The notes under the pieces are model-generated. The model did no database searches, had not been told where the DNA came from, and saw nothing but the letters and a program-made list of their open reading frames with translations. Source: Escherichia coli (GTDB taxonomy: Bacteria > Pseudomonadota > Gammaproteobacteria > Enterobacterales > Enterobacteriaceae). From it: a stretch of 64,000 nucleotides of DNA. Below are positions 17,100 through 44,657 of this stretch, piece after piece (position 1 is the first letter of the stretch; every line of letters starts with the position of its first letter). Both the position numbers and the translations under genes were made by a program. The DNA lies in the NCBI RefSeq assembly GCF_003991155.1, contig NZ_CP031295.1; one strand, 5' to 3'.

Positions 17100-17103
17100 A
17101 ACG

Positions 17104-17415: not shown

Positions 17416-17436
17416 AACTGATACCAGGATTGTTAT

Positions 17437-20909: not shown

Positions 20910-20920
20910 GGAACCCTTCG

Positions 20921-24784: not shown

Positions 24785-25162
24785 GTTCAACGCAGAAACC
24801 CGCCGACGTCACGGCAGAACAACGCATCCACTGGTGGTGGATGGTGCCGGATGCCCGGCAATGGTGTTACTGAACGCAGCCGTCAGTTACGGCATTGTCA
24901 GACTGAACGCACCGGTGACTGTCGCCTTCAACATGAAACAGACCGTGGATGCGTTTTTGACAGCGCCAGTCAGAAACAACTGTCAGAAGCACAGTCAAAA
25001 GCCCTTTCAGCGCGTTTAACACGGCACTGGAAGCCAGCCTGCAGGCGTGGCAGCAGAAACACCACGCGGTCATTCTGGTGTCGCCTGCTGTGGTACAGGG
25101 GCACCGGATATCACCGGGAAATCCAGCAGGATATTGCCCGGCGAATGAGGGCGGAACCATGA
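24781..25162 (+). pseudogene. trbI: trbI disrupted by frameshifts
   Basis: starts MSSTQKPADVTAE... at 24781; frame lost repeatedly; C-terminal ...IARRMRAEP readable in another frame. Confidence 0.65.
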
Positions 25163-25777
25163 GATGCCGGGGCTGATTGCCCTGCTGATATGGGGCAGAG
25201 GCCGCCGCCGATCTTGGTACCTGGGGCGATCTGTGGCCGGTAAAGGAGCCGGACATGCTGACGGTGATCATGCAGCGCCTGACGGCACTGGAGCAGTCCG
25301 GTGAGATGGGCCGGAAAATGGATGCCTTTAAGGAGCGGGTGATCCGCAACAGTCTGCGGCCCCTGCCGTGCCCGGTATCGGACGCACGGAGAAATACGGC
25401 AGCCGGTTGTTTGACCCGTCCGTCAGACTGGCTGCGGATATCCGGGATAACGAAGGGCGGGTGTTTGCCCGTCAGGGTGAAGTGATGAATCCGCTGCAGT
25501 ATGTTCCTTTAACCAGACGCTGTATTTCATCAATGGCGATGATCCGGCGCAGGTGGCCCGATGAAACGCCAGACGCCGCCCACACTGGAGAGCAAAATTA
25601 TCCTCGTGCAGGGCAGTATCCGGAGATGCAGAAAGCGCTGGACAGCCGTATTTACTTTGACCAGAACGGTGTGCTCTGCCAGCGCCTCGGCATTGATCAG
25701 GTCCCGGCACGGGTGCGCCGTTCCCGGCGATCGCTTCCTGAAGGTGGAATTTATTCCGGCAGGAGGGCAGAAAATGA
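25159..25777 (+). pseudogene. traW: traW disrupted by frameshifts
   Basis: MRCRGLIALLIWGQ... start at 25159; TraW-like pieces appear in several frames (25255-25485, 25368-25937). Confidence 0.65.
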
Positions 25778-26758
25778 AGCGAGGCCTGTGGCTGCTGATG
25801 TTCTTCCTTTCGCCGGTCATGTCCCTGCGGCGTCTGCGGATTCTGCCTGTGAGGGGCGTTTTGTAAACCCGATCACGGATATCTGCTGGAGCTGTATTTT
25901 CCCGCCTCGCTGGGCAGTATCAAAGTCAGTCAGGTAAGGTCCCCGACACGGCGAACCCGTCGATGCCCATTCAGATTTGTCCGGCACCGCCGCCGCTGTT
26001 CAGGCGTATCGGGCTGGCCATTGGTTACTGGGAGCCGATGGCGCTGACGGACGTCACCCGGTCACCGGGATGCATGGTTAACTGGGCTTCAGCCTGCCGG
26101 CTTTGGTAAAACGGCACAGGAACGGCGAAAAGGATGAGAAGCAGGTGAACGGGCGTTCTATCACGTTCACTGGTACAAATACCCGCTGACGTACTGGCTG
26201 AACATCATCACATCGCTGGGCTGTCTGGAAGGTGGTGACCTGGATATCGCTTATCTTTCTGAAATTGACCCCACCTGGACGGACAGCAGCCTGACCACCA
26301 TTCTCAATCCGGAAGCTGTCATCTTTGCCAATCCGATAGCACAGGGGGCCTGTGCAGCAGATGCCATTGCCAGCGCCTTTAATATGCCTCTCGATGTTCT
26401 GTTCTGGTGTGCCGGTTCGCAGGGCAGTATGTACCCGTTCAATGGCTGGGTGAGTAATGAGTCCAGTCCGTTGCAGTCCTCCCTGCTGGTCAGTGAACGC
26501 ATGGCGTTCAAGCTGCACCGTCAGGGCATGATTATGGAAACCATCGGGAAAAATAACGCCGTCTGTAATGAATATCCGTCCCCAATCCTGCCCAAAGAAC
26601 GCTGGCGTTACCAGATGGTGAATATGTACCCGGACAGCAGACAGTGCCACCCGTTCGGGCGCAGTGTGACCCGCTGGGAAACCGGGAAAAATCCGCCCAA
26701 TACAAAGAAAAACTTCGGCTACCTGATGTGGCGTAAACGTAACTGTGTCTTCCTGTGA
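25774..26758 (+). pseudogene. traU: traU disrupted by frameshifts (last 124 codons intact)
   Basis: MKRGLWLLMF... start at 25774; frame lost by ~25900 and regained by 26384 (ORF 26384-26758 is the TraU C-terminus). Confidence 0.7.
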
Positions 26759-26763
26759 GGTGA

Positions 26764-27405
26764 ATGATGAAGCTGAGTATGAAATCTCTGGCAGCACTGC
26801 TGATGATGCTGAACGGGGCGGTTATGGCGTCAGAAAACGTGAACACTCCTGAAAACCGCCAGTTCCTGAAGCAGCAGGAAAATTTAAGCAGACAACTGCG
26901 TGAAAAACCTGACCATCAGCTGAAAGCCTGGGCGGAGAAGCAGGTGCTGGAAAACCCCCTTCAGCGTTCAGATAACCATTTCCTGGATGAGCTGGTTCGT
27001 AAACAGCAGGCTTCGCAGGACGGGAAACCCCGGCAGGGTGCTCTGTATTTTGTGTCGTTTTCCATTCCCGAAGAGGGGCTGAAACGAATGCTGGGCGAAA
27101 CCCGGCACTACGGTATTCCGGCCACACTGCGGGGCATGGTGAACAATGACCTGAAGACCACCGCTGAAGCTGTGTTGTCCCTGGTGAAAGACGGAGCGAC
27201 TGATGGTGTTCAGATCGACCCGACGCTGTTTTCACAGTACGGCATTCGCACTGTACCGGCACTGGTGGTGTTCTGCAGTCATGGATACGACATCATCCGG
27301 GGAAACCTGCGGGTCGGCCAGGCGCTGGAGAAAGTGGCCGCCACGGGTGACTGCCGGCAGGTGGCTCATGATTTACTGGCAGGGAAAGGAGATTCCGGGA
27401 AATGA
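26764..27405 (+). CDS. trbC: TrbC pilus assembly protein
   Basis: 213 aa with signal peptide; conserved order. Confidence 0.85.
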   Translation: MMKLSMKSLAALLMMLNGAVMASENVNTPENRQFLKQQENLSRQLREKPDHQLKAWAEKQVLENPLQRSDNHFLDELVRKQQASQDGKPRQGALYFVSFSIPEEGLKRMLGETRHYGIPATLRGMVNNDLKTTAEAVLSLVKDGATDGVQIDPTLFSQYGIRTVPALVVFCSHGYDIIRGNLRVGQALEKVAATGDCRQVAHDLLAGKGDSGK

Positions 27406-29210
27406 AACGTATTTTACCTCTGATACTGGCTCTGGTTGCCGGCATGGCACAGGCTGACAGCAACAGTGATTACCGGGCCGGCTCTGATTTTGCTCACCAG
27501 ATCAAAGGACAGGGAAGCAGCAGTATTCAGGGCTTTAAGCCACAGGAGAGTATCCCCGGCTATAACGCGAATCCGGACGAGACAAAATATTACGGTGGCG
27601 TGACTGCCGGCGGGGATGGCGGCCTGAAAAATGACGGCACCACGGAATGGGCGACCGGTGAAACCGGAAAAACCATCACAGAGTCATTCATGAACAAGCC
27701 GAAAGACATTCTTTCACCGGATGCACCGTTTATCCAGACCGGCAGGGATGTGGTGAACCGGGCTGACAGCATTGTGGGAAACACCGGGCAGCAGTGCAGT
27801 GCGCAGGAGATTAGCCGGAGTGAATACACGAATTACACCTGTGAGCGGGATTTACAGGTGGAGCAGTACTGCACACGAACTGCCCGTATGGAGCTGCAGG
27901 GGAGTACCACATGGGAAACCCGGACGCTGGAGTATGAAATGAGTCAGCTACCTGCACGTGAAGTGAATGGTCAGTATGTTGTCTCCATTACCTCTCCCGT
28001 TACCGGTGAAATTGTCGATGCGCATTACAGCTGGAGTCGTACTTACCTGCAGAAGAGTGTACCTATGACAATTACAGTACTGGGAACCCCACTGAGCTGG
28101 AATGCCAAATACTCAGCAGATGCCTCATTTACACCAGTACAGAAAACACTGACTGCCGGTGTTGCTTTTACGTCATCTCACCCCGTCCGGGTCGGGAATA
28201 CAAAATTCAGACGTCATACGGCAATGAAGCTGCGTCTGGTTGTCAGGGTAAAAAAAGCCTCGTACACCCCGTATGTTGTCTGGTCTGAAAGCTGCCCGTT
28301 CAGCAAGGAGCTGGGGAAACTGACAAAAACAGAATGTACGGAGGCTGGCGGGAACAGGACGCTGGTGAAAGATGGTCAGTCATACAGCATGTACCAGAGC
28401 TGCTGGGCATACCGGGACACGTATGTCACGCAGTCAGCAGACAAGGGAACCTGTCAGACCTACACCGACAATCCTGCCTGTACCCTGGTGTCACACCAGT
28501 GCGCCTTTTACTCCGAAGAAGGTGCCTGTCTGCATGAATATGCCACCTACTCCTGCGAGTCAAAAACATCAGGGAAAGTGATGGTCTGTGGGGGAGACGT
28601 CTTCTGTCTCGATGGCGAATGCGATAAGGCTCAGAGCGGGCAGAGTAATGATTTTGCCGAAGCCGTTTCTCAGCTGGCGGCACTGGCCGCAGCAGGTAAG
28701 GATGTTGCGGCGCTGAACGGGGTGGATGTCCGTGCTTTCACCGGTCAGGCGAAATTTTGTAAGAAGGCTGCAGCCGGATACAGCAACTGCTGTAAGGACA
28801 GCGGCTGGGGACAGGATATCGGGCTGGCCAAATGCAGCAGTGATGAAAAGGCCCTGGCTAAAGCAAAATCAAACAAACTGACCGTCAGTGTCGGAGAGTT
28901 CTGTTCGAAGAAAGTGCTGGGTGTCTGCCTGGAGAAAAAACGCAGTTACTGTCAGTTTGATTCGAAGCTGGCGCAGATAGTCCAGCAGCAGGGGCGCAAC
29001 GGACAGCTGCGTATCAGTTTTGGCAGTGCGAAGCATCCTGACTGTCGGGGGATTACGGTTGATGAGCTGCAGAAAATTCAGTTCGACAGACTGGATTTCA
29101 CTAACTTCTACGAAGACCTGATGAATAACCAGAAAATCCCGGACAGTGGCGTTCTGACGCAGAAAGTGAAAGAGCAGATTGCTGACCAGCTGAAACAGGC
29201 AGGACAGTAA
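27402..29210 (+). CDS. traN: TraN mating-pair stabilisation outer-membrane protein
   Basis: 602 aa, signal peptide, Cys-rich C-terminal half. Confidence 0.9.
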   Translation: MKRILPLILALVAGMAQADSNSDYRAGSDFAHQIKGQGSSSIQGFKPQESIPGYNANPDETKYYGGVTAGGDGGLKNDGTTEWATGETGKTITESFMNKPKDILSPDAPFIQTGRDVVNRADSIVGNTGQQCSAQEISRSEYTNYTCERDLQVEQYCTRTARMELQGSTTWETRTLEYEMSQLPAREVNGQYVVSITSPVTGEIVDAHYSWSRTYLQKSVPMTITVLGTPLSWNAKYSADASFTPVQKTLTAGVAFTSSHPVRVGNTKFRRHTAMKLRLVVRVKKASYTPYVVWSESCPFSKELGKLTKTECTEAGGNRTLVKDGQSYSMYQSCWAYRDTYVTQSADKGTCQTYTDNPACTLVSHQCAFYSEEGACLHEYATYSCESKTSGKVMVCGGDVFCLDGECDKAQSGQSNDFAEAVSQLAALAAAGKDVAALNGVDVRAFTGQAKFCKKAAAGYSNCCKDSGWGQDIGLAKCSSDEKALAKAKSNKLTVSVGEFCSKKVLGVCLEKKRSYCQFDSKLAQIVQQQGRNGQLRISFGSAKHPDCRGITVDELQKIQFDRLDFTNFYEDLMNNQKIPDSGVLTQKVKEQIADQLKQAGQ

Positions 29211-29233
29211 GGTAGGGAAAATAACCGGGGGAA

Positions 29234-29497
29234 ATGATGAAGGTCATATTCACTTCTAATCGTCTTGTTGATTTTCTTATCCGGCTTTTGATTACAGCGA
29301 TTGTCATTTCCCCGGTAATTATCTGGTCGTGGGATACGGTAAAAGAAACCACTGCAGGTGAGATGCTTGCTGCCTGTTTTGTTATTTTTTACTCCGGTGT
29401 GCTCCTGTTTATTCTGTATTTTTGTTTTTCTGCCCTGACTGACCTGCAGAAACCTGATGATGAAAGAAAAAGTGATGAAAGGAATGAAGATGAATAA
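29234..29497 (+). CDS. trbE: TrbE
   Basis: 87 aa small membrane protein, positional. Confidence 0.7.
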   Translation: MMKVIFTSNRLVDFLIRLLITAIVISPVIIWSWDTVKETTAGEMLAACFVIFYSGVLLFILYFCFSALTDLQKPDDERKSDERNEDE

Positions 29498-30233
29498 AGC
29501 ATTACTGCCACTGTTACTCTGCTGCTTTATTTTTCCGGCGTCAGGAAAAGATGCAGGCTGGCAGTGGTATAACGAGAAAATAAATCCGAAGGAAAAAGAA
29601 AATAAACCAGTACCTGCAGCCCCCCGTCAGGAGCCGGACATTATGCAGAAACTGGCCGCACTGCAGACGGCAACAAAGCGGGCGCTGTACGAAGCTATTC
29701 TGTATCCCGGCGTGGATAATTTTGTGAAATATTTCCGGCTGCAGAATTACTGGACTCAGCAGGCCGGGCTTTTCACCATGAGCGCCAAAAAAGCCATGCT
29801 GGCGCATCCCGAACTGGACTATAACCTGCAGTACAGCCATTACAACGGCACGGTCCGGAACCAGCTGGCGGCAGACCAGGTGCAGCAGCGACAGGCCATT
29901 GCGAAACTGGCTGAACACTACGGCATCATGTTCTTTTACCGGGGGCAGGACCCCATCGACGGGCAGCTGGCGCAGGTCATTAATGGCTTCAGGAATACCT
30001 ATGGTCTGAGTGTTATTCCCGTTTCCGTGGATGGCGTGATTAATCCGCTGTTGCCGGATTCCCGGACTGACCAGGGGCAGGCGCAGCGCCTCGGCGTGAA
30101 ATATTTCCCGGCCATGATGCTGGTTGACCCGAAACAGGGCAGTGTTCGTCCGTTATCATACGGTTTTATTTCGCAGGACGACCTGGCAAAACAGTTCCTG
30201 AACGTTTCTGAAGATTTTAAACCGAACTTCTGA
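29490..30233 (+). CDS. traF: TraF pilus assembly protein (thioredoxin-like fold)
   Basis: 247 aa from MNKALLPLLLCCFIFPASG (signal peptide). Confidence 0.9.
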   Translation: MNKALLPLLLCCFIFPASGKDAGWQWYNEKINPKEKENKPVPAAPRQEPDIMQKLAALQTATKRALYEAILYPGVDNFVKYFRLQNYWTQQAGLFTMSAKKAMLAHPELDYNLQYSHYNGTVRNQLAADQVQQRQAIAKLAEHYGIMFFYRGQDPIDGQLAQVINGFRNTYGLSVIPVSVDGVINPLLPDSRTDQGQAQRLGVKYFPAMMLVDPKQGSVRPLSYGFISQDDLAKQFLNVSEDFKPNF

Positions 30234-30348
30234 ATTACGGATATTTTCCGTTCGTCAGTAAATTCCATTAATTCTGAACCTGATAATAATTCACCATTTA
30301 TTCCGGTAGTCCCTTATTTAATTCTCTGTATGACAGGAGAGTTTTACT

Positions 30349-30630
30349 GTGCATAAATATAAATTCTCTTTACCCCGGCTTGATATTACGGGAATGTGGG
30401 TATTTTCCCTGGGTGTCTGGTTTCATATCGTCGCCCGTCTTGTTTACAGCAAACCCTGGATGGCTTTTCTTCTGGCGGAGTTGATTGCGGCCATCCTTGT
30501 GCTGTTCGGCGCATACCAGGTGCTGGATGCATGGATTGCCCGTGTCAGCCGGGAAGAGCGTGAGGCACTGGAAGCCAGGCAACAGGCCATGATGGAAGGG
30601 CAGCAGGAGGGCAGACATGTCTCTCATTAA
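30349..30630 (+). CDS. traQ: TraQ pilin chaperone
   Basis: 93 aa (GTG start) inner-membrane protein; trbA/artA, which I recall between traF and traQ in F, are absent (only ~115 bp spacer). Confidence 0.8.
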   Translation: MHKYKFSLPRLDITGMWVFSLGVWFHIVARLVYSKPWMAFLLAELIAAILVLFGAYQVLDAWIARVSREEREALEARQQAMMEGQQEGRHVSH

Positions 30631-31162
30631 ATCACTGTTGTTCACCCTGTTGCTGGCAGCCGCTGCCGTGCAGGCCTCCACCCGGGATGAAATTGAACGA
30701 CTCTGGAATCCGCAGGGCATGGCCGCGCAGCCTGCACAACCGGCAGCAGACACATCAGCCAGGACAGAAAAGCCGGCTCCCCGCTGGTTCCGCCTCAGCA
30801 ACGGCAGGCAGGTTAACCTGGCCGACTGGAAGGTGGTGCTGTTTATGCAGGGGCATTGCCCTTACTGCCACCAGTTTGACCCGGTACTGAAACAGCTGGC
30901 ACAGCAGTACGGCTTTTCCGTTTTTCCCTACACCCTGGATGGTCAGGGGGATAACGCCTTTCCGGAGGCATTGCCGGTGCCACCGGACGTGATGCAGACC
31001 TTCTTCCCGAATATCCCGGTGGCCACACCGACCACCTTCCTGGTCAACGTCAACACGCTTGAGGCATTACCGCTTTTACAGGGGGCAACGGATGCTGCCG
31101 GTTTTATGGCGCGGATGGATACCGTTCTGCAGATGTACGGAGGGAAAAAAGGTGCGAAATAA
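30617..31162 (+). CDS. trbB: TrbB periplasmic thiol-disulfide isomerase
   Basis: 181 aa, signal peptide, CPYC active-site motif. Confidence 0.85.
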   Translation: MSLIKSLLFTLLLAAAAVQASTRDEIERLWNPQGMAAQPAQPAADTSARTEKPAPRWFRLSNGRQVNLADWKVVLFMQGHCPYCHQFDPVLKQLAQQYGFSVFPYTLDGQGDNAFPEALPVPPDVMQTFFPNIPVATPTTFLVNVNTLEALPLLQGATDAAGFMARMDTVLQMYGGKKGAK

Positions 31163-31454
31163 GCAGGTGGTGTTACTCATTGCCGGAATATCCGGCATCG
31201 CGACGGGAATAATCGTCAGCCTGAATATCCCCTTTATCCATCAGGGGCTTTTTTATCCCGCCAGCCCTGTAGAAATTGTCGTTTCGCTGTGCCTTACCTT
31301 TTCTGTTTCTGTTGTGTTTTTTGTGGGGGCAATTGTGGGATGGATTTCGGTGTCTGAAATATATTACAGCCGCAGGACTGGACGGAAATATCGGGATATA
31401 CCTGCTGAAATGTCGTATGCGCCGGGAGAACAAATTAAGGGAGGGCAAGAATGA
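31152..31454 (+). CDS. trbJ: TrbJ-like small membrane protein
   Basis: 100 aa from GTG 31152 with RBS GGAGGG; two hydrophobic segments; only one ORF fits between trbB and traH, so a separate trbF is absent. Confidence 0.5.
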   Translation: MRNKQVVLLIAGISGIATGIIVSLNIPFIHQGLFYPASPVEIVVSLCLTFSVSVVFFVGAIVGWISVSEIYYSRRTGRKYRDIPAEMSYAPGEQIKGGQE

Positions 31455-32827
31455 TGCCACGCATTAAACCTCTTCTGGTTCTTTGTGCTGCTTTACTGAC
31501 GGTCACACCCGCAGCGTCAGCGGATGTGAACAGCGACATGAATCAGTTCTTTAACAAGCTGGGCTTCGCCTCCAATACCACACAGCCGGGCGTCTGGCAG
31601 GGGCAGGCCGCCGGTTATGCTTACGGTGGCTCCCTGTATGCCCGTACTCAGGTCAAAAATGTTCAGCTGATTTCCATGACGCTGCCGGATATCAATGCCG
31701 GATGTGGCGGCATCGACGCCTATCTCGGCTCGTTCAGCTTTATTAATAGCGAGCAGTTGCAGCGTTTTGTTAAGCAGATTATGAGCAATGCTGCCGGTTA
31801 CTTCTTTGACCTTGCCCTGCAGACAACGGTGCCGGAAATCAAAACCGCAAAAGACTTCCTGCAGAAAATGGCAAGCGACATTAACAGTATGAACCTCAGT
31901 TCCTGCCAGGCGGCGCAGGGGATTATTGGCGGGCTTTTCCCCCGGACGCAGGTGTCCCAGCAAAAAGTCTGTCAGGACATTGCCGGTGAGAGCAATATTT
32001 TTGCTGACTGGGCTGCTTCCCGGCAGGGATGTACCGTTGGCGGGAAATCTGACAGCGTCAGGGATAAAGCCAGCGACAAGGATAAGGAGCGGGTGACCAA
32101 AAACATTAACATCATGTGGAATGCGCTTTCCAAAAACAGAATGTTTGACGGCAACAAAGAGCTGAAAGAGTTTGTGATGACGCTGACCGGCTCACTGGTG
32201 TTTGGTCCCAACGGCGAAATCACACCGCTGTCGGCCAGAACCACTGACCGCTCAATTATCCGGGCCATGATGGAAGGCGGCACAGCAAAAATTTATCACT
32301 GCAACGATTCTGATAAATGCCTGAAAGTGGTGGCAGACACACCGGTGACTATAAGCCGGGATAATGCACTGAAGTCTCAGATTACTAAACTTCTGGCCAG
32401 CATTCAGAACAAGGCGGTCAGTGACACGCCTCTGGATGACAAGGAAAAAGGCTTTATTTCCAGTACCACCATCCCCGTCTTCAAATACCTGGTTGACCCG
32501 CAGATGCTCGGTGTTTCCAACAGCATGATTTACCAGCTGACGGACTATATCGGTTACGACATCCTGCTGCAGTACATTCAGGAGCTGATACAGCAGGCCC
32601 GGGCGATGGTGGCCACGGGAAATTATGACGAAGCAGTTATCGAACATATTAACGACAATATGAATGATGCCACCCGGCAGATTGCGGCGTTTCAGTCACA
32701 GGTGCAGGTACAGCAGGATGCGCTGCTGGTTGTCGATCGTCAGATGAGCTACATGCGTCAGCAGCTTTCCGCCCGCATGCTCAGTCGTTACCAGAACAAC
32801 TATCACTTCGGAGGGAGCACGCTGTGA
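31451..32827 (+). CDS. traH: TraH pilus assembly protein
   Basis: 458 aa, signal peptide, C-terminal coiled coil. Confidence 0.9.
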   Translation: MMPRIKPLLVLCAALLTVTPAASADVNSDMNQFFNKLGFASNTTQPGVWQGQAAGYAYGGSLYARTQVKNVQLISMTLPDINAGCGGIDAYLGSFSFINSEQLQRFVKQIMSNAAGYFFDLALQTTVPEIKTAKDFLQKMASDINSMNLSSCQAAQGIIGGLFPRTQVSQQKVCQDIAGESNIFADWAASRQGCTVGGKSDSVRDKASDKDKERVTKNINIMWNALSKNRMFDGNKELKEFVMTLTGSLVFGPNGEITPLSARTTDRSIIRAMMEGGTAKIYHCNDSDKCLKVVADTPVTISRDNALKSQITKLLASIQNKAVSDTPLDDKEKGFISSTTIPVFKYLVDPQMLGVSNSMIYQLTDYIGYDILLQYIQELIQQARAMVATGNYDEAVIEHINDNMNDATRQIAAFQSQVQVQQDALLVVDRQMSYMRQQLSARMLSRYQNNYHFGGSTL

Positions 32828-35646
32828 ATGAAGTTTATGTGATTGCCGGTGGTGAGTGGTTGCGGAATAACCTGAATGCCATTGCCGCCTTTATGGGAAC
32901 CCGGACGTGGGATTCCATTGAGAAAATTGCTCTCACCCTGTCTGTTGTTGCGGTGGCCTTTATGTGGGTACAGCGCCATAACGTGATGGATTTGCTGGGC
33001 TGGGCGGCGGTGTTTGTACTTATCAGCCTGCTGGTTAATATCCGCACATCGGTGCAGATTATTGATAACAGTGACCTGGTCAAAGTTCACCGGGCGGATA
33101 ATGTGCCGGTCGGACTGGCGATGCCACTTTCACTGACGACCCGTATCGGGCATGCAATGGTGGCCAGTTACGAGATGATCTACACGCAACCGGACAGTTT
33201 CACCTACAGCAAAACGGGGATGCTGTTTGGTGCAGAACTGGTATCAAAAAGCACTGACTTTTTGTCTCGTAATCCGGAAATCGCCAATCTTTTCCAGGAT
33301 TATGTGCAGAACTGCGTGATGGGGGATATTTACCTGAACCACAAATACACGCTGGAGGAGCTGATGGCCTCCTCTGATCCCTACACGCTGATTTTTTCCC
33401 GTCCCAGTCCGCTGCGGGGCGTTTATGACAGCAATAATAATTTCGTAACCTGTAAGGATGCGTCGGTTTCGTTGAAAGACAAGCTGAATCTGGACACACA
33501 GAGTGGCGGAAAAACCTGGCATTATTATGCCCAGCAGTTATTTGGTGGTCGCCCTGATCCGAACCTGTTGTTCAGTACGCTGATTGGCGACAGTTACCGT
33601 TACTTCTATGACTCAAGTAAATCAGCCAGCCAGATCATCCGCCAGAATGTCACCATTAATGCGCTGAAGGAGGGGATCACCAGTTATGCAGCACGTAATG
33701 GTGACTCAGCCAGCCTGGTGAATCTGGCCACCACGTCATCGATGGAGAAGCAACGTCTGGCACATGTCTCCATCGGTCATGTGGCGATGCGGACACTGCC
33801 CATGACGCAGACCATCCTGACGGGGATCGCCATTGGTATTTTCCCGCTTCTGGTACTGGCGGCTGTCTTCAACAAACTGACGCTGTCCGTCCTGAAAGGC
33901 TATGTGTTTGCCCTGATGTGGTTGCAGTCATGGCCAATGTTGTACGCCATTCTGAACAGCGCCATGACATTTTATGCGAAGCAGAATGGTGCACCGGTGG
34001 TGCTCTCGGAAATTTCACAGATACAGCTGAAATACTCCGATCTGGCTTCCACTGCCGGGTATCTTTCCATGATGATCCCGCCATTATCCTGGATGATGGT
34101 CAGGGGACTCGGGGCCGGATTTTCCAGTGTGTACAGCCATTTCGCTTCCTCTGCTATCAGCCCGACTGCCAGTGCGGCAGGTAGTGTGGTTGACGGTAAT
34201 TACTCCTACGGCAACATGCAGACGGAAAACGTGAACGGATTCAGCTGGAGCACCAACAGCACCACGTCGTTTGGTCAGATGATGTACCAGACCGGCAGTG
34301 GCGCAACCGCTACACAGACCCGTGACGGTAATATGGTGATGGATGCAAGCGGAGCGATGTCCCGGTTACCGGTCGGCATCAATGCAACGCGTCAGATTGC
34401 GGCGGCACAACAGGAAATGGCCCGGGAAGCATCGAACAGAGCAGAAAGTGCCCTGCATGGGTTCAGCAGCAGTATTGCCAGTGCCTGGAACTCGCTCAGT
34501 CAGTTTGGTTCTAACCGGGGGAGCAGTGATTCTGTCACCGGTGGTGCTGACAGCACGATGAGCGCACAGGACTCCATGATGGCCAGCCGTATGCGCAGCG
34601 CAGTGGAAAGCTATGCGAAGGCGCATAATATCAGTAATGAGCAGGCGACAAGAGAACTGGCATCAAGAAGTACGAGAGGTTCTGCGGGGATGTATGGCGA
34701 TGCTCATGCTGAATGGGGGGTTAAACCTAAAATTCTTGGTGTTGGTGGTGGCGTAGGTGTTAGAGGTGGTGGTCGGGCAAGTATTGACTGGAGTGATGAG
34801 GATGCGCATCAGGCCAGCAGTGGTTCACGGGCCAGCCATGATGCTCGCCATGATATCGATGCCAGGGCTACACAAGACTTTAAAGAGGCCAGCGATTACT
34901 TTACCAGTCGCAAGGTCAGTGAATCCGGCAGCCATACGGACAATAATGCCGATTCCCGTGTGGACCAGCTGTCTGCAGCCCTGAACTCAGCAAAACAGAG
35001 TTACGACCAGTACACGACGAATATGACCCGCAGCCATGAATATGCTGAAATGGCATCCCGTACTGAAAGCATGAGTGGGCAGATGAGTGAAGACCTGTCG
35101 CAACAGTTTGCACAGTATGTGATGAAACACGCGCCGCAGGATGCCGAAGCTATTCTGACAAACACCAGTTCACCGGAGATTGCAGAACGCCGTCGGGCTA
35201 TGGCGTGGTCTTTTGTTCAGGAACAGGTGCAGCCTGGTGTTGATAATGCCTGGCGTGAATCCCGTGGGGACATCGGTAAAGGAATGGAGAGCGTACCTTC
35301 GGGTGGTGGCAGCCAGGATATTATTGCTGATCATCAGGGGCATCAGGCCATTATTGAGCAAAGAACGCAGGACAGTAATATCCGTAATGATGTAAAACAT
35401 CAGGTTGATAATATGGTCACAGAATACCGAGGCAATATCGGAGATACTCAGAGCAGCATACGTGGCGAAGAAAATATTGTAGGAAGACAGTATTCTGAAC
35501 TACAAAATCACCATAAAACAGAGGCATTATCTCAGAATAATAAATATAATGAAGAAAAATCGGGTCAGGAAAGAATGCCCGGGGCTGACAGTCCACAGGA
35601 ACTGATGAAAAGAGCAAAGGAGTATCAGGATAAGCACAAGCAATAA
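32824..35646 (+). CDS. traG: TraG mating-pair stabilisation / entry-exclusion determinant
   Basis: 940 aa, polytopic N-terminal membrane domain plus large periplasmic C-terminal domain. Confidence 0.9.
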   Translation: MNEVYVIAGGEWLRNNLNAIAAFMGTRTWDSIEKIALTLSVVAVAFMWVQRHNVMDLLGWAAVFVLISLLVNIRTSVQIIDNSDLVKVHRADNVPVGLAMPLSLTTRIGHAMVASYEMIYTQPDSFTYSKTGMLFGAELVSKSTDFLSRNPEIANLFQDYVQNCVMGDIYLNHKYTLEELMASSDPYTLIFSRPSPLRGVYDSNNNFVTCKDASVSLKDKLNLDTQSGGKTWHYYAQQLFGGRPDPNLLFSTLIGDSYRYFYDSSKSASQIIRQNVTINALKEGITSYAARNGDSASLVNLATTSSMEKQRLAHVSIGHVAMRTLPMTQTILTGIAIGIFPLLVLAAVFNKLTLSVLKGYVFALMWLQSWPMLYAILNSAMTFYAKQNGAPVVLSEISQIQLKYSDLASTAGYLSMMIPPLSWMMVRGLGAGFSSVYSHFASSAISPTASAAGSVVDGNYSYGNMQTENVNGFSWSTNSTTSFGQMMYQTGSGATATQTRDGNMVMDASGAMSRLPVGINATRQIAAAQQEMAREASNRAESALHGFSSSIASAWNSLSQFGSNRGSSDSVTGGADSTMSAQDSMMASRMRSAVESYAKAHNISNEQATRELASRSTRGSAGMYGDAHAEWGVKPKILGVGGGVGVRGGGRASIDWSDEDAHQASSGSRASHDARHDIDARATQDFKEASDYFTSRKVSESGSHTDNNADSRVDQLSAALNSAKQSYDQYTTNMTRSHEYAEMASRTESMSGQMSEDLSQQFAQYVMKHAPQDAEAILTNTSSPEIAERRRAMAWSFVQEQVQPGVDNAWRESRGDIGKGMESVPSGGGSQDIIADHQGHQAIIEQRTQDSNIRNDVKHQVDNMVTEYRGNIGDTQSSIRGEENIVGRQYSELQNHHKTEALSQNNKYNEEKSGQERMPGADSPQELMKRAKEYQDKHKQ

Positions 35647-35648
35647 TA

Positions 35649-36164
35649 TTGTATGGGGAGATGATAATGAAAAATTTAGCTCATATTGCTCTGGTGACGG
35701 TGATACAGTTCATTGCCTGTTATCTGGCTGATTGGGGGAGTGCCGAAACAGTTTTTATCCTGTGCTTTATTGTACTATGGCAGGGATTGTTTATATGGTT
35801 ATTTTCTCAAATACGAAAAAAACGGCATGTGTCGGATGAGTTTAAATTCAGTAAAGGCGTTTGGTATATACTGATGCCAGTATCTTCCTTACTCTCTCCG
35901 TTATTAAGCCTGATGGTTTTTATCATTGGTACACTATACGAATTAAGGCGAATTAGTGGTTGTGTAAGTGTAAGAGAATGGATGCAATCTCAGGTAAATG
36001 AACAAACTAATGAAGATTTGCATCTGGATTTTGATGATGTGAATTTTGATTATGTGGATTTTTATCGTACTAATCCGGCAACAGGATTAGCTATGCATGG
36101 AGGATTTGATTCAGCAGGAAATACTTTTGGGACTTGTTGGCAGGACTATGATGACAGGCGATAA
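35649..36164 (+). CDS. traS: TraS entry-exclusion inner-membrane protein
   Basis: hydrophobic ORF in the traG-traT position; TraS is the variable specificity protein, so assignment is positional. Confidence 0.65.
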
Positions 36165-36195
36165 GAAAACTGTGGTTTGTAATAAAGGTAATTTG

Positions 36196-36927
36196 ATGAA
36201 AACAAAAAAATTGATGATGGTTGCACTGGTCAGTTCCACTCTGGCCCTTTCAGGGTGTGGTGCGATGAGCACAGCAATCAAGAAGCGTAACCTTGAGGTG
36301 AAGACTCAGATGAGTGAGACCATCTGGCTTGAACCCGCCAGCGAACGCACGGTATTTCTGCAGATCAAAAACACGTCTGATAAAGACATGAGTGGGCTGC
36401 AGGGCAAAATTGCTGATGCTGTGAAAGCAAAAGGATATCAGGTGGTGACTTCTCCGGATAAAGCCTACTACTGGATTCAGGCGAATGTGCTGAAGGCCGA
36501 TAAGATGGATCTGCGGGAATCTCAGGGATGGCTGAACCGTGGTTATGAAGGCGCAGCAGTTGGTGCAGCGTTAGGTGCCGGTATCACCGGATATAATTCC
36601 AGTTCTGCCGGTGCCACACTCGGTGTGGGCCTTGCTGCCGGTCTGGTGGGTATGGCTGCAGATGCGATGGTGGAAGATGTGAACTATACCATGATCACGG
36701 ATGTGCAGATTGCAGAGCGTACTAAGGCAACGGTGACAACGGATAATGTTGCCGCCCTGCGTCAGGGCACATCAGGTGCGAAAATTCAGACCAGTACTGA
36801 AACAGGTAACCAGCATAAATACCAGACCCGTGTGGTCTCAAATGCAAACAAGGTTAACCTGAAATTTGAAGAGGCGAAGCCTGTTCTCGAAGACCAGCTG
36901 GCCAAATCAATTGCAAATATTCTCTGA
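36196..36927 (+). CDS. traT: TraT surface-exclusion lipoprotein (also confers serum resistance)
   Basis: 243 aa from [25 protein letters not shown] (lipobox). Confidence 0.9.
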
Positions 36928-36938
36928 TTATCTTCCGG

Positions 36939-36961
36939 AGGCTGGTCTGACCGGCCTCCTG
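36939..36961 (+). terminator. hairpin after traT
   Basis: ggaggctggtctgaccggcctcc inverted repeat. Confidence 0.5.
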
Positions 36962-37179
36962 ACTGACGCCTCGCTTTGCTCGTTGTCCAACCCCGGAAAG
37001 AAATAAAATAAATTTTATTTCTCCCCGGCGTTTCCGAAATAAATATGAAAACAATGAGCGGTTGTGCAAATTCTTTGTGCGACCGTGAAGTGTTGCCGGC
37101 GAAGCCGGAATTTAACGGTTATTAATCTTTTCATCATTAATAATCAGTCCGACTGACTTTCTTTCTTCGGAATATCATC

Positions 37180-39387
37180 ATGAGTTTTAACGCAAAGGAT
37201 ATGACCCAGGGCGGTCAGATTGCGTCCATGCGTATCCGCATGTTCAGCCAGATCGCCAATATCATGCTTTACTGCCTGTTTATTTTTTTCTGGATACTCG
37301 TTGGTCTGGTTTTATGGGTAAAAATAAGCTGGCAGACGTTTGTGAACGGCTGTATTTACTGGTGGTGTACCACGCTGGAAGGTATGCGGGATTTAATCAG
37401 GTCCCAGCCGGTCTATGAGATCCAGTATTACGGCAAAACCTTCCGGATGAACGCTGCTCAGGTACTGCATGATAAATATATGATCTGGTGCGGAGAGCAG
37501 CTATGGTCCGCATTCGTTCTGGCCACAGTTGTGGCACTGGTTATTTGCCTGATTACCTTCTTTGTTGTCTCCTGGATTCTGGGGCGTCAGGGTAAACAAC
37601 AGAGCGAAAATGAAGTCACAGGTGGTCGTCAGCTGACAGACAATCCGAAAGACGTTGCCCGGATGCTGAAAAAAGACGGCAAGGACTCCGATATACGGAT
37701 TGGCGACCTGCCGATTATCCGGGATTCCGAAATCCAGAACTTCTGTCTGCACGGCACGGTCGGGGCCGGTAAGTCGGAAGTTATCCGTCGTCTGGCCAAC
37801 TACGCCCGTCAGCGTGGAGATATGGTGGTGATTTATGACCGTTCAGGGGAATTTGTTAAAAGTTACTATGATCCCTCCATCGATAAAATCCTGAATCCGC
37901 TGGATGCCCGCTGTGCCGCCTGGGATTTGTGGAAGGAGTGCCTGACACAGCCGGATTTTGATAATACCGCGAACACGCTGATCCCGATGGGCACAAAAGA
38001 GGACCCGTTCTGGCAGGGTTCAGGACGTACCATTTTTGCGGAAGCGGCGTACCTGATGCGTAATGACCCCAACCGCAGCTACAGCAAACTGGTGGACACA
38101 CTGCTTTCCATCAAAATCGAAAAACTGCGTACCTTCCTGCGTAATTCACCGGCGGCCAACCTGGTGGAAGAGAAAATTGAGAAAACGGCGATTTCCATCC
38201 GTGCTGTGCTGACCAACTACGTGAAAGCCATCCGTTACCTGCAGGGGATTGAGCATAACGGTGAGTCTTTTACCATCCGTGACTGGATGCGTGGTGTCCG
38301 GGAAGATCAGAAAAACGGCTGGCTGTTTATCTCGTCGAATGCCGACACCCATGCCTCCCTGAAGCCGGTGATCTCCATGTGGCTGTCCATTGCCATTCGT
38401 GGTCTGCTGGCAATGGGAGAAAACCGTAACCGTCGTGTGTGGTTTTTCTGTGATGAGCTACCCACGTTACACAAACTGCCGGACCTGGTGGAGATCCTGC
38501 CGGAAGCCCGTAAGTTCGGTGGCTGTTATGTGTTTGGTATCCAGTCCTATGCCCAGCTGGAAGATATCTACGGTGAGAAAGCGGCTGCCACGCTGTTTGA
38601 CGTCATGAACACCCGTGCCTTTTTCCGTTCTCCCAGCCATAAGATTGCAGAGTTCGCTGCCGGTGAGATTGGTGAGAAAGAGCACCTGAAAGCCAGCGAG
38701 CAGTATTCCTACGGTGCTGATCCGGTACGTGACGGGGTATCGACCGGTAAGGATATGGAGCGCCAGACGCTGGTCAGTTATTCCGACATTCAGTCTCTGC
38801 CGGATCTGACCTGTTATGTCACCCTGCCCGGACCGTATCCGGCAGTAAAACTCTCTCTGAAATATCAGACACGACCGAAGGTCGCTCCGGAGTTTATTCC
38901 GCGTGACATCAACCCGGAAATGGAGAACCGTCTGAGTGCCGTACTTGCCGCAAGGGAAGCAGAAGGTCGTCAGATGGCCAGCCTCTTCGAACCGGATGTG
39001 CCGGAAGTTGTTTCCGGAGAAGACGTGACTCAGGCTGAACAGCCGCAACAGCCGCAACAGCCGCAACAGCCGCAACAGCCGCAACAGCCGCAACAGCCGC
39101 AACAGCCGGTGTCTTCTGCCATCAACGATAAGAAGTCAGATTCAGGTGTGAATGTTCCGGCAGGGGGGATCGAGCAGGAGCTGAAAATGAAACCGGAAGA
39201 AGAGATGGAACAGCAACTGCCACCCGGGATCAGTGAATCCGGTGAAGTGGTGGATATGGCCGCTTATGAGGCATGGCAACAGGAAAATCATCCGGACATC
39301 CAGCAGCAGATGCAGCGTCGTGAAGAGGTGAACATTAATGTGCACCGGGAGCGTGGGGAGGATGTTGAGCCGGGAGATGATTTCTGA
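37180..39387 (+). CDS. traD: TraD type IV coupling protein
   Basis: 735 aa; N-terminal transmembrane segments, Walker [10 protein letters not shown]-terminal (QQP)n repeat tract and acidic tail. Confidence 0.9.
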
Positions 39388-42300
39388 TGATGAGTATCGC
39401 GCAGGTCAGATCGGCCGGAAGTGCCGGTAACTATTATACCGACAAGGATAATTACTATGTGCTGGGCAGCATGGGAGAACGCTGGGCCGGCAGGGGGGCT
39501 GAACAGCTGGGACTGCAGGGCAGTGTCGATAAGGATGTTTTTACCCGTCTTCTGGAGGGAAGGCTGCCGGACGGAGCGGATCTAAGCCGCATGCAGGATG
39601 GCAGTAATAAGCATCGTCCCGGCTACGACCTGACCTTCTCCGCCCCCAAAAGTGTCTCCATGATGGCCATGTTAGGTGGCGATAAGCGCCTGATTGATGC
39701 ACATAACCAGGCCGTGGACTTTGCTGTTCGTCAGGTGGAGGCGCTGGCCTCCACACGGGTTATGACGGACGGACAGTCAGAAACGGTGCTGACCGGTAAT
39801 CTGGTGATGGCACTGTTTAACCACGACACCAGTCGCGATCAGGAACCACAGCTACACACGCATACGGTGGTGGCTAATGTCACGCAGCATAACGGCGAAT
39901 GGAAGACACTGAGCAGTGACAAAGTGGGGAAAACGGGGTTCATTGAGAATGTGTACGCTAATCAGATTGCCTTTGGCAGGCTCTACCGGGAAAAACTGAA
40001 AGAGCAGGTTGAGGCGCTGGGCTATGAAACCGAAGTGGTGGGTAAGCACGGTATGTGGGAGATGCCGGGCGTACCGGTGGAGGCCTTTTCCGGACGCTCA
40101 CAGGCTATCCGGGAGGCCGTCGGGGAAGATGCCTCGCTGAAATCCCGGGATGTGGCGGCACTGGATACGCGAAAATCCAAACAGCACGTCGATCCTGAAG
40201 TCAGAATGGCTGAATGGATGCAGACGCTGAAGGAAACCGGGTTCGACATCCGGGCATATCGTGACGCGGCGGATCAGCGTGCGGAGACCCGCACGCAGGC
40301 GCCCGGGGCTGTTTCACAGGAGGGGCCGGATGTGCAGCAGGCGGTGACACAGGCGATTGCCGGATTAAGTGAACGAAAAGTGCAGTTTACGTACACGGAC
40401 GTGCTGGCCAGAACGGTCGGTATACTGCCGCCGGAAAATGGTGTGATTGAACGGGCACGCGCCGGTATCGATGAGGCCATCAGTCGTGAGCAGCTTATCC
40501 CCCTCGATCGTGAGAAGGGGCTGTTCACATCAGGAATTCATGTGCTCGATGAGCTGTCCGTCCGGGCACTCAGTCGTGACATCATGAAACAGAACCGGGT
40601 GACCGTACATCCGGAGAAAAGTGTCCCCCGGACGGCTGGTTACAGCGATGCGGTCAGTGTTCTGGCACAGGACCGTCCGTCGCTGGCCATTGTGTCCGGG
40701 CAGGGCGGTGCAGCCGGGCAGCGTGAGCGGGTGGCTGAACTGGTCATGATGGCCCGGGAGCAGGGGCGGGAAGTGCAGATTATCGCTGCTGACCGTCGCT
40801 CGCAGATGAACCTGAAGCAGGATGAACGGCTGTCCGGTGAGCTGATAACCGGACGTCGTCAGCTGCTGGAAGGCATGGCTTTCACGCCGGGCAGTACCGT
40901 TATCGTTGACCAGGGCGAAAAACTCTCCCTGAAAGAGACATTAACCCTGCTGGACGGTGCCGCACGTCATAACGTACAGGTCCTGATAACCGACAGTGGG
41001 CAGCGAACCGGTACAGGCAGTGCGCTGATGGCCATGAAGGATGCCGGGGTGAACTCATATCGCTGGCAGGGGGGAGAACAGCGACCGGCCACCATCATCA
41101 GTGAACCGGACCGTAATGTCCGCTATGCCCGGCTGGCCGGAGATTTTGCGGCCAGCGTGAAAGCCGGAGAAGAGAGCGTGGCACAGGTCAGCGGAGTACG
41201 GGAACAGGCCATACTGACACAGGCCATTCGCAGTGAGCTGAAAACACAGGGCGTGCTCGGACACCCGGAGGTAACCATGACCGCCCTGTCACCGGTCTGG
41301 CTGGACAGCCGGAGCCGTTACCTGCGGGATATGTACCGCCCGGGGATGGTGATGGAGCAGTGGAACCCGGAGACACGCAGTCATGACCGCTATGTGATAG
41401 ACCGGGTGACGGCGCAGAGTCACAGCCTGACCCTGCGGGATGCGCAGGGTGAAACGCAGGTGGTGCGTATTTCTTCTCTGGACAGCAGCTGGTCGCTGTT
41501 CCGGCCGGAGAAAATGCCGGTGGCAGACGGCGAGCGTCTGAGGGTGACAGGGAAAATTCCCGGACTCCGCGTCTCCGGCGGTGACCGCCTGCAGGTGACA
41601 TCCGTCAGTGAAGATGCGATGACGGTTGTTGTGCCGGGACGTGCTGAACCGGCCTCCCTGCCTGTGGCTGATTCACCGTTCACGGCACTGAAGCTGGAGA
41701 ACGGCTGGGTGGAAACGCCCGGGCATTCCGTCAGCGACAGTGCGACGGTTTTTGCCTCCGTCACACAGATGGCAATGGACAACGCCACCCTGAACGGTCT
41801 GGCCCGCAGCGGTCGTGATGTCCGGCTGTATTCATCGCTGGATGAAACCCGTACTGCGGAAAAACTTGCCCGCCATCCCTCCTTTACGGTGGTTTCTGAG
41901 CAGATAAAGGCGCGTGCCGGTGAGATATTGCTGGAAACCGCTATCAGTCTGCAGAAAGCAGGGCTTCACACGCCGGCACAGCAGGCCATTCATCTGGCCC
42001 TTCCTGTGCTGGAAAGTAAAAACCTGGCCTTCAGCATGGTGGACCTGCTGACAGAGGCGAAGTCGTTTGCTGCAGAAGGAACCAGTTTTACTGACCTGGG
42101 AGGGGAAATCAATGCGCAGATAAAACGCGGTGATTTACTGTATGTGGATGTGGCAAAAGGCTATGGCACAGGCCTGCTGGTTTCCCGTGCGTCGTATGAG
42201 GCTGAAAAAAGCATTCTTCGCCATATTCTCGAAGGTAAGGAGGCGGTCACGCCGCTGATGGAGAGAGTACCTGGCGAACTCATGGAGAAACTGACATCAG

Positions 42301-44657
42301 GACAGCGCGCCGCCACCCGCATGATACTGGAAACGTCCGACCGTTTCACGGTGGTGCAGGGCTATGCCGGTGTGGGGAAGACCACACAGTTCCGGGCGGT
42401 GATGTCAGCCGTGAACATGCTGCCGGAGAGTGGGCGTCCCCGTGTCGTGGGGCTGGGTCCCACGCACCGCGCGGTCGGGGAGATGCGCAGCGCCGGCGTG
42501 GATGCACAGACACTGGCGTCATTTCTGCATGACACGCAGCTGCAGCAGCGCAGCGGAGAAACACCGGATTTCAGCAACACGCTGTTCCTGCTCGATGAGA
42601 GCTCAATGGTGGGCAATACCGACATGGCACGGGCATACGCCCTGATTGCGGCCGGTGGTGGTCGTGCCGTGGCCAGCGGTGACACGGACCAGCTGCAGGC
42701 CATCGCGCCCGGTCAGCCTTTCCGTCTCCAGCAGACGCGCAGTGCTGCCGATGTGGCTATCATGAAAGAGATTGTGCGTCAGACGCCGGAACTGCGGGAG
42801 GCGGTATACAGCCTGATTAACCGGGATGTGGAAAGGGCATTGTCCGGGCTTGAGAGTGTGAAACCGTCTCAGGTGCCTCGTCAGGAGGGCGCATGGGCAC
42901 CGGAGCACTCTGTGACGGAGTTCAGTCACAGCCAGGAAGCGAAACTGGCAGAAGCGCAGCAGAAGGCGATGCTGAAAGGCGAGGCTTTCCCGGATGTCCC
43001 CATGACACTGTATGAAGCCATTGTCCGCGACTATACCGGCAGAACACCGGAAGCACGGGAGCAGACGCTGATTGTCACGCACCTGAATGAGGACCGGCGC
43101 GTACTGAACAGCATGATTCATGATGCACGGGAAAAGGCCGGTGAGCTGGGGAAAGAGCAGGTCATGGTGCCTGTCCTGAACACAGCGAATATACGCGACG
43201 GAGAGCTGCGTCGTCTCTCCACCTGGGAGACACATCGGGACGCACTTGTCCTGGTGGATAATGTGTATCACCGGATTGCCGGTATCAGTAAGGATGACGG
43301 GCTGATAACCCTGCAGGATGCGGAAGGTAACACGCGGCTGATTTCGCCCCGGGAGGCGGTGGCTGAAGGCGTCACACTGTACACCCCGGACACCATCCGG
43401 GTAGGGGCCGGTGACCGGATGCGCTTCACGAAGAGTGACCGGGAGCGTGGTTATGTGGCCAACAGCGTCTGGACGGTGACAGCGGTTTCCGGTGACAGTG
43501 TCACGCTGTCGGGCAGACAGCAGACCCGGGTGATTCGCCCCGCCCAGGAGCGGGCAGAGCAACATATTGACCTGGCCTATGCCATCACCGCTCACGGTGC
43601 GCAGGGGGCAAGTGAAACCTTTGCCATCGCGCTTGAAGGTACGGAAGGCAGCCGGAAACTGATGGCTGGCTTTGAGTCAGCCTACGTGGCCCTGTCGCGT
43701 ATGAAGCAGCATGTGCAGGTGTACACCGATAACCGTCAGGGCTGGACGGATGCCATTAACAATGCCGTACAGAAAGGAACAGCCCACGATGTGTTTGAAC
43801 CGAAACCGGACCGGGAGGTCATGAATGCAGAGCGGCTGTTCAGTACGGCGCGGGAGCTGCGGGACGTGGCGGCAGGGCGTGCCGTTCTTCGTCAGGCGGG
43901 GCTTGCCGGGGGAGACAGTCCTGCACGGTTTATTGCTCCGGGACGTAAATATCCACAGCCGTATGTGGCACTGCCGGCGTTTGACCGTAACGGCAAGTCT
44001 GCCGGTATCTGGCTGAACCCGCTGACCACGGATGACGGAAACGGGCTGCGGGGATTCAGTGGTGAAGGCCGTGTGAAAGGCAGCGGGGATGCGCAGTTCG
44101 TGGCCCTGCAGGGCAGCCGTAACGGCGAGAGCCTGCTGGCTGATAATATGCAGGATGGTGTCCGGATTGCCCGTGATAACCCCGACAGCGGTGTGGTGGT
44201 GAGAATCGCCGGTGAAGGTCGTCCGTGGAATCCCGGTGCCATCACCGGTGGCCGCGTGTGGGGGGATATCCCGGACAACAGCGTCCAGCCGGGAGCCGGA
44301 AATGGCGAGCCGGTCACGGCAGAGGTACTGGCACAGCGGCAGGCTGAAGAGGCCATCCGCCGTGAAACGGTACGCCGCGCAGATGAAATTGTCCGTAAAA
44401 TGGCAGAGAACAAACCTGACCTGCCGGACAGCAAAACAGAGCAGGCTGTCAGGGAGATTGCCGGGCAGGAGCGTGACCGGTCTGCCATATCTGAACGGGA
44501 AGCCGCGCTGCCGGAGAGTGTGCTGCGTGAATCACAACGGGAGCGGGAAGCTGTCAGGGAAATTGCCCGGGAAAATCTGCTGCAGGAGCGTCTGCAGCAG
44601 ATGGAACGGGATATGGTTCGTGACCTGCAGAAAGAGAAAACCCTGGGCGGAGACTGA
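39387..44657 (+). CDS. traI: TraI relaxase-helicase
   Basis: 1756 aa; N-terminal relaxase with catalytic tyrosines (..GNYYTDKDNYYVLG..) and HTH..H motif, central and C-terminal helicase domains (GYAGVGKT Walker A). Confidence 0.95.
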   Translation: MMSIAQVRSAGSAGNYYTDKDNYYVLGSMGERWAGRGAEQLGLQGSVDKDVFTRLLEGRLPDGADLSRMQDGSNKHRPGYDLTFSAPKSVSMMAMLGGDKRLIDAHNQAVDFAVRQVEALASTRVMTDGQSETVLTGNLVMALFNHDTSRDQEPQLHTHTVVANVTQHNGEWKTLSSDKVGKTGFIENVYANQIAFGRLYREKLKEQVEALGYETEVVGKHGMWEMPGVPVEAFSGRSQAIREAVGEDASLKSRDVAALDTRKSKQHVDPEVRMAEWMQTLKETGFDIRAYRDAADQRAETRTQAPGAVSQEGPDVQQAVTQAIAGLSERKVQFTYTDVLARTVGILPPENGVIERARAGIDEAISREQLIPLDREKGLFTSGIHVLDELSVRALSRDIMKQNRVTVHPEKSVPRTAGYSDAVSVLAQDRPSLAIVSGQGGAAGQRERVAELVMMAREQGREVQIIAADRRSQMNLKQDERLSGELITGRRQLLEGMAFTPGSTVIVDQGEKLSLKETLTLLDGAARHNVQVLITDSGQRTGTGSALMAMKDAGVNSYRWQGGEQRPATIISEPDRNVRYARLAGDFAASVKAGEESVAQVSGVREQAILTQAIRSELKTQGVLGHPEVTMTALSPVWLDSRSRYLRDMYRPGMVMEQWNPETRSHDRYVIDRVTAQSHSLTLRDAQGETQVVRISSLDSSWSLFRPEKMPVADGERLRVTGKIPGLRVSGGDRLQVTSVSEDAMTVVVPGRAEPASLPVADSPFTALKLENGWVETPGHSVSDSATVFASVTQMAMDNATLNGLARSGRDVRLYSSLDETRTAEKLARHPSFTVVSEQIKARAGEILLETAISLQKAGLHTPAQQAIHLALPVLESKNLAFSMVDLLTEAKSFAAEGTSFTDLGGEINAQIKRGDLLYVDVAKGYGTGLLVSRASYEAEKSILRHILEGKEAVTPLMERVPGELMEKLTSGQRAATRMILETSDRFTVVQGYAGVGKTTQFRAVMSAVNMLPESGRPRVVGLGPTHRAVGEMRSAGVDAQTLASFLHDTQLQQRSGETPDFSNTLFLLDESSMVGNTDMARAYALIAAGGGRAVASGDTDQLQAIAPGQPFRLQQTRSAADVAIMKEIVRQTPELREAVYSLINRDVERALSGLESVKPSQVPRQEGAWAPEHSVTEFSHSQEAKLAEAQQKAMLKGEAFPDVPMTLYEAIVRDYTGRTPEAREQTLIVTHLNEDRRVLNSMIHDAREKAGELGKEQVMVPVLNTANIRDGELRRLSTWETHRDALVLVDNVYHRIAGISKDDGLITLQDAEGNTRLISPREAVAEGVTLYTPDTIRVGAGDRMRFTKSDRERGYVANSVWTVTAVSGDSVTLSGRQQTRVIRPAQERAEQHIDLAYAITAHGAQGASETFAIALEGTEGSRKLMAGFESAYVALSRMKQHVQVYTDNRQGWTDAINNAVQKGTAHDVFEPKPDREVMNAERLFSTARELRDVAAGRAVLRQAGLAGGDSPARFIAPGRKYPQPYVALPAFDRNGKSAGIWLNPLTTDDGNGLRGFSGEGRVKGSGDAQFVALQGSRNGESLLADNMQDGVRIARDNPDSGVVVRIAGEGRPWNPGAITGGRVWGDIPDNSVQPGAGNGEPVTAEVLAQRQAEEAIRRETVRRADEIVRKMAENKPDLPDSKTEQAVREIAGQERDRSAISEREAALPESVLRESQREREAVREIARENLLQERLQQMERDMVRDLQKEKTLGGD

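Follow-up and report, generated by a model that had tools for sequence, protein, structure and literature searches.

Absence of trbA, artA, trbF and ‘trbH’ from an F-like tra operon of Escherichia coli: very probably three common natural alleles rather than a reduced F

The stretch of DNA analyzed here, 64,000 nucleotides of the Escherichia coli contig NZ_CP031295.1 (“the window”), carries the transfer (tra) region of an F-like conjugative plasmid. According to blastn, it is colinear with F (NC_002483) over 33 kb, has its genes in F order within one long operon and encodes a MOBF relaxase, TraI. As to the regulatory set, the window aligns to the segments of F and of plasmid p13C1065T-2 (NZ_CP019261) that hold traM, traJ and traY, and to the p13C1065T-2 segment with finO. 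Judged by its sequence, the operon would be a classical MOBF12 group A / MPF_F F-like tra operon; p13C1065T-2, whose record is identical to the window in the region under study, is typed MOBF / MPF_F. Leaving aside traS, which is a divergent allele, and the repeat in traD, the blastn alignment with F breaks only at F positions 17851–18618, approx. 19644–19983 and 27962–28673. The original prediction, made from the letters of the window, had stated that trbA/artA, trbF and trbH are absent, and the alignment breaks at exactly the three sites it named. It further held that the region is a reduced variant of F, and that the gaps are a lineage marker rather than a defect. The F gene order on which it relied (traF, trbA, artA on the minus strand, traQ, trbB, trbJ, trbF, traH) agrees with NC_002483.

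The flanking essential genes traF, traQ, trbB, traH, traG, traD and traI are intact, with 90–99.6% identity to the F proteins, as is every gene within 28–45 kb; all lie on the plus strand. The missing genes have not been relocated. No ORF homologous to TrbA (NCBIfam NF010266) or ArtA was found in the 64-kb window (best tblastn E-values 0.83 and 1.5, respectively; nothing in blastn), VapB, VapC and ‘TrbH’ of F had no match there using tblastn and sensitive blastn, and TrbF of F was matched in tblastn by its C-terminal tail alone. In the complete sequence of p13C1065T-2, neither TrbA nor ArtA nor TrbF beyond this tail was detected. The absence of these genes from the named sites is confirmed.

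At the first site, traF occupies 29490–30233 (247 aa, 98.4% identity to F TraF) and the conserved traQ frame opens with GTG at 30349, which leaves a spacer of 115 nt, in agreement with the approx. 115 bp predicted. This non-coding spacer (30234–30348) is AT-rich (33% GC) and lies in place of the 768-bp trbA/artA segment of F, with which it shares no sequence. No promoter-like site, terminator or Rfam family was found in the 115 nt, and the predicted fold is insignificant (z = −1.4). The right end of the spacer and the first traQ codons (GTGCATAAATATAAATT, VHKYKF) match the version of pSLT (GTGCGTAAATATAAATT); F and R100 have another upstream sequence in common and start traQ with ATG (MISKRRF). 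Since the spacer lacks homology to trbA/artA of F and resembles pSLT, it is an alternative allele related to that of pSLT rather than trimmed F sequence. The trbA/artA segment of F has a GC content of 36.8% versus 51.9% for the operon, and for MOBF12 groups B, D and E, neither gene is listed as conserved; both facts favor a gain in the F/R100 lineages. The site would consist of an untranslated 115-nt spacer and a GTG-initiated traQ where F and R100 have the AT-rich trbA(+artA) segment.

The traQ ORF itself (30349–30630, 93 codons from GTG, AGGAG upstream) passes the TraQ model TIGR02741 with 178.6 bits (cutoff 111.6) and matches Pfam TraQ over residues 2–91 (1.9e-41). In RefSeq, traQ of this allele starts at an internal ATG (30394, 78 aa). 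The 15 codons from GTG 30349 up to this ATG, FSLPRLDITG included, show conservation with F TraQ and fall within the TraQ models; hence, the annotated start is probably too short.

At the second site, trbB (30617–31162, intact, 181 aa, 95.6% identity to F TrbB) and traH (31451–32827, intact, start at ATG 31451 or 31454, 457 aa from the latter, 99.3% identity to F TraH) are separated by a single small ORF of 120 aa from ATG (31092–31454), and this ORF is the only one there, as had been predicted. Compared to F and R100, both of which contain the full 3′ end of trbJ followed by trbF, approx. 349 nt are missing, with the junction between 31381 and 31382. The deletion moves the trbJ frame into the trbF frame, so that the ORF is a trbJ′-′trbF in-frame fusion: residues 1 to approx. 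97 of TrbJ run into RKYRDIPAEMSYAPGEQIKGGQE, an F-type TrbF tail forming the last 23 residues. Consequently, the predicted absence of trbF applies to most of the gene, but its last 23 codons are kept, fused to trbJ. The fusion ORF passes the NCBIfam model for TrbJ (NF010265, 238.7 bits, cutoff 164, model positions 1–114 of 115) and gives no match with the one for TrbF (NF010306, cutoff 144 bits), which is why pipelines call it trbJ. The ORF annotated ‘trbJ’ in this large plasmid group is, in other words, a trbJ-trbF fusion. We found no description of the fusion as such in the literature; annotation pipelines simply say TrbJ.

The retained 3′ end keeps the Shine-Dalgarno sequence of traH (AAGGGAGGG) and an ATGA stop/start overlap. 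The TrbF tail of R100 is in another frame, and the amino acid sequence of the tail is therefore unlikely to be what is conserved. A 48-nt probe spanning the junction hit 698 E. coli records, and five diverged carriers share the same junction and an intact ORF of 120 codons, which would indicate a single old event. We propose that one ancestral deletion of approx. 349 nt took the 3′ end of trbJ with most of trbF and joined the remainders in frame; as it spared the ribosome-binding site and the stop/start overlap, translation of the essential traH was presumably left undisturbed. Of the three sites, trbB–traH is the only one that is demonstrably reduced. Two candidate routes to the deletion were rejected. 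Paralogy of TrbJ and TrbF would permit unequal crossing-over, but the BLASTP match was poor (E = 0.01 over 38 residues). A 10-nt direct repeat in F (CGGAAATATC) was considered as deletion substrate; however, the window junction lies 13 nt left of the position predicted from it, which does not fit a simple repeat-mediated deletion.

At the third site, traD (37180–39387, 735 aa) ends exactly where traI (39387–44657, relaxase/helicase, 1756 aa, 97.4% identity to F TraI) begins, as predicted: the A of the traD stop codon TGA (39385–39387) is also the first base of the traI ATG at 39387. There is no intervening DNA, and this TGATG overlap has the same form in R100. Exactly at this point, F and pSLT contain a 712-bp insert (F 27962–28673) with vapC and vapB on the minus strand according to RefSeq. 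VapC of F was assigned to the PIN domain (6e-21) and to the NCBIfam tRNA(fMet) endonuclease VapC (287 bits), and VapB of F is of the MazE type; no minus-strand cassette with such a pair is present between traD and traI in the window. The plus-strand ‘TrbH’ ORF of F, 239 codons long, gave no family match, and in the annotation of pSLT (36561–37280) trbH overlaps an mvpA homolog. The claim that trbH is absent is thus correct insofar as there is no cassette at traD–traI, but ‘trbH’ is not a credible gene, as its ORF runs antisense to vapBC. The antisense arrangement has already been noted in the literature, where vapBC2 “within the trbH gene” was reported to stabilize pSLT 5.5-fold (PMC5065971).

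The vapBC insert was found in 764 of 3215 E. coli records matching the traD–traI junction (approx. 76% are without it), and 8% of 256 MOBF12 plasmids were reported to contain trbH (PMC5102898). Accordingly, the window has the common state, and the “missing” item is a maintenance cassette. Because the overlap is the majority state and is also present in R100, we infer that F is the variant at traD–traI, bearing an inserted vapBC cassette. The junction of the window would be translationally coupled, as in R100 and most F-like plasmids, and vapBC of F and pSLT, historically read as ‘trbH’, would act in plasmid maintenance rather than in transfer. ‘trbH’ would then only be an antisense reading of the vapBC cassette for maintenance, the absence of which bears on plasmid stability and not on transfer. 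A different vapBC pair was observed in p13C1065T-2 (32576–33219; VapC 42% identical to that of F) far from the tra operon; toxin-antitoxin maintenance in this plasmid is therefore supplied by other modules.

The frequency of each state was determined in complete E. coli genomes using megablast. With trbB as the denominator (2976 records), F-type trbA was found in 1561–1853 records, full artA in 834 and the trbF core in 1407, while the spacer of the window occurs in 364 and the fusion junction, as given above, in 698. Four sampled fusion carriers (L005 to L008) combine the states differently: trbA occurs together with vapBC in L005 and without it in L007, and both are missing from L006 and L008. 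The three states are consequently independent, recombining polymorphisms, which speaks against the predicted use of the gaps as a lineage marker. The anatomy of the sites, their frequencies and this independent assortment were observed directly; polarity at traF–traQ and traD–traI is deduced from them. More generally, small indel polymorphisms of this kind recombine freely and are unsuited, taken alone, as markers of IncF lineages. The window operon is thus very probably a combination of three independent, common natural alleles.

A record count for artA deserves mention here, since 1951 E. coli records match the gene and only 834 hold most of it. In R100 (18215–18334), trbA and approx. 45 nt of the 3′ end of artA are kept, and 277 bp with the rest of artA and its start are missing; the same was seen in L005 and L007. 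Partial artA of this R100 type probably explains the gap between the two counts. In the F-type plasmid pA237_p0 (CP142574, 18671–18985), ArtA is labeled ‘toxin ArtA’. Neither an NCBIfam model nor a supporting paper was found for a toxin role of ArtA; the label may be a name collision with the unrelated Salmonella ArtAB toxin.

The variability of trbA, artA, trbF and ‘trbH’ among F-like plasmids is already documented (PMC5102898). According to this study, non-essential tra genes are less frequent in F-like plasmids and the ones at issue here are the least conserved, trbA, trbG and artA are rare and co-occurring, and for MOBF12 groups B, D and E neither these three nor trbH are listed as conserved; for IncFV plasmids, it states in general terms that the same homologs are conserved as in group A. 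Insertion-mutant studies of trbA/artA and of trbJ/trbH are cited in the same paper. Natural plasmids point in the same direction. The plasmid pEC_B24, which is without trbF and artA, “is easily transferred” (PMC2887853), and for pJZ27-tet(X4) (ON390808), which is 100% identical to the window over 28–42 kb, filter-mating transfer at 1e-4 was reported (PMC9602804). Dispensability of the genes rests on the summary and citations of PMC5102898 together with these transfer data, from which we infer that the three states have no effect on transfer. The layout was predicted not to be a defect, and this is borne out by the intact flanking essential genes and the reported transfer of pJZ27-tet(X4). As the layout is common, documented and present in a plasmid reported to transfer, it is ordinary.

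One part of the window upstream of the three sites has a different character. From 22552 to 26151, traC, trbI, traW and traU have no intact frame, whereas the genes from traN onward are intact. The patch contains 57 small indels, 56 of which are deletions of 1–4 nt, with homopolymers and CCWGG (Dcm) sites as their main locations. Comparison with each of three different references gives the same indels, and from 27 kb to the alignment end at approx. 39.1 kb there are none. They are probably errors of an unpolished long-read assembly and not real pseudogenes, to judge from their type and position. Besides, the tra region is mosaic (12000–32000): the 15–22 kb part differs from pA237_p0, which carries trbG, trbA, artA and trbF, by 0–1 mismatch per kb, and from 28 kb the window is identical to p13C1065T-2. 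The switch between the two types falls in the indel patch, which suggests that the long-read consensus may be unpolished or chimeric over a stretch that two co-resident F-like plasmids have in common.

Such a patch, together with the mosaic switch, raises the question of whether the absences themselves are assembly or annotation artefacts of the window. We consider this extremely improbable. Against the independently sequenced p13C1065T-2, the window is free of mismatches and indels between 28 kb and approx. 39.08 kb, where the aligned block ends inside traD. Only the traD repeat and the final approx. 300 nt of the region fall outside this block; the blastn alignment continues onward to 52.3 kb, and the 60-nt traD–traI junction of the window is matched to 100% in this plasmid. 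Hence, the absences are not a sequencing artefact, and the hundreds of E. coli records with the same spacer or fusion junction argue likewise. The disrupted frames of traC, trbI, traW and traU could also be taken, together with the gaps, as signs of a decaying and transfer-defective tra operon. This is very unlikely: the indels are nearly all deletions of 1–2 nt at homopolymers and CCWGG sites, private to the window and confined to 3.6 kb, a pattern typical of long-read consensus before polishing; all genes in 28–45 kb are intact; and hundreds of plasmids classified as conjugative have these junctions too, including one reported to transfer.

A further alternative takes up the predicted “reduced variant of F” literally, i.e., all three absences would be recent deletions from an F-identical ancestor. 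It can point to the trbJ/trbF site, a clear deletion with both flanks kept at F-like identity, and to the proximal half of the tra region (15–22 kb), nearly identical to an F-type plasmid with trbA, artA, trbJ and trbF. However, the spacer has no homology to trbA/artA of F and the 5′ end of traQ is of the GTG type of pSLT, the traD/traI overlap is the same as in R100 and represents the majority state, the window is recombinant with its distal part (28–52 kb) from another lineage, and for plasmid groups other than A these genes are not named as conserved. A demonstrable deletion exists only at trbJ/trbF, and a uniform derivation from F is unlikely. In the proposed synteny comparison, the gaps were confirmed against F, but R100 shares the traD/traI overlap, which speaks against a uniform reduction. 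Thus, the original observation is correct and its interpretation partly right: the layout is neither a defect nor a uniform reduction of F nor a single lineage marker. With respect to the fusion, found in approx. 23% of trbB-bearing E. coli plasmid records, one may speculate about a selected chimeric inner-membrane protein, or about loss of TrbF selected for its influence on transfer, for instance on efficiency, recipient range or sensitivity to pilus phages, but we would give this idea little chance.

Several points weigh against the reading as three independent, common alleles. Polarity at traF–traQ and traD–traI is derived from distribution and junction form rather than from a rooted phylogeny, and a precise loss of the cassettes could have produced the same junctions. 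Megablast misses alleles below approx. 85% identity, and the collection is clinically biased, so that the counts should be read accordingly. The donor in the pJZ27-tet(X4) assay was a wild strain, in which help from a co-resident plasmid is possible. Finally, if the breaks in traC, trbI, traW and traU were real, the element could not transfer, although this would be unrelated to the three gaps.

Comparison with named plasmids illustrates how the alleles are distributed. Between traM and traX, F matches the window in gene order and orientation, and its proteins in the region are 90–99.6% identical; in contrast to the window, it has trbA and artA, complete trbJ and trbF, vapBC (‘trbH’), another traS allele and a shorter QQP repeat in TraD. 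R100 (NC_002134) resembles the window in its traD/traI overlap and in lacking vapBC and a full artA, but has kept trbA and separate trbJ and trbF genes, and has additional ORFs behind traR, behind traU and in front of traD. pSLT (NC_003277) has neither trbA nor artA, starts traQ with GTG (GTGCGTAAATATAAATT) and has a partly similar spacer upstream; unlike in the window, this spacer is 213 nt long, trbJ and trbF are missing with trbB overlapping traH, and vapBC2/‘trbH’ is present. The closest relatives are p13C1065T-2, pJZ27-tet(X4) and other IncFIB/FIC multiresistance plasmids, which are approx. 100% identical over 28–42 kb and have all three junctions. In p13C1065T-2, the annotated genes are, in order, traF, traQ, trbB, ‘trbJ’, traH, traG, one for entry exclusion, traT and traD, and the final base of traD is also the first of traI. 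This plasmid differs from the window in the proximal tra half, where it has a long trbD and no trbG while the window is F-type, and TraD repeat length differs between the window and relatives of this type. Using the 28–42 kb part of the window as megablast query, at least 5000 plasmid records were matched, 111 of them at ≥99% identity among the matches listed; the hosts were Escherichia, Salmonella, Shigella and Klebsiella.

The remaining genes between traH and traI are traG (32824–35646, intact, 940 aa, 90.4% identity to F TraG), an entry-exclusion gene at the traS position (35661–36164) and traT (36196–36927, 243 aa, 99.6% identity to F TraT). On the minus strand within traG (33543–33628), the Rfam family AS-traG, antisense to traG, scored 56.2 bits (E = 6e-9) and just missed the gathering score of 58. 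The gene at the traS position is a non-F allele and does not align with F traS. The non-aligning region spans 35633–36191, and the protein encoded at the same position in L005 is annotated as ‘entry exclusion protein’; the allele would imply an exclusion specificity other than that of F. The C-terminal QQP repeat of TraD (39055–39091) is expanded to 7 to 8 PQQ units versus 2 in F, and TraD has a length of 735 aa in the window, 717 aa in F and 726 aa in p13C1065T-2.

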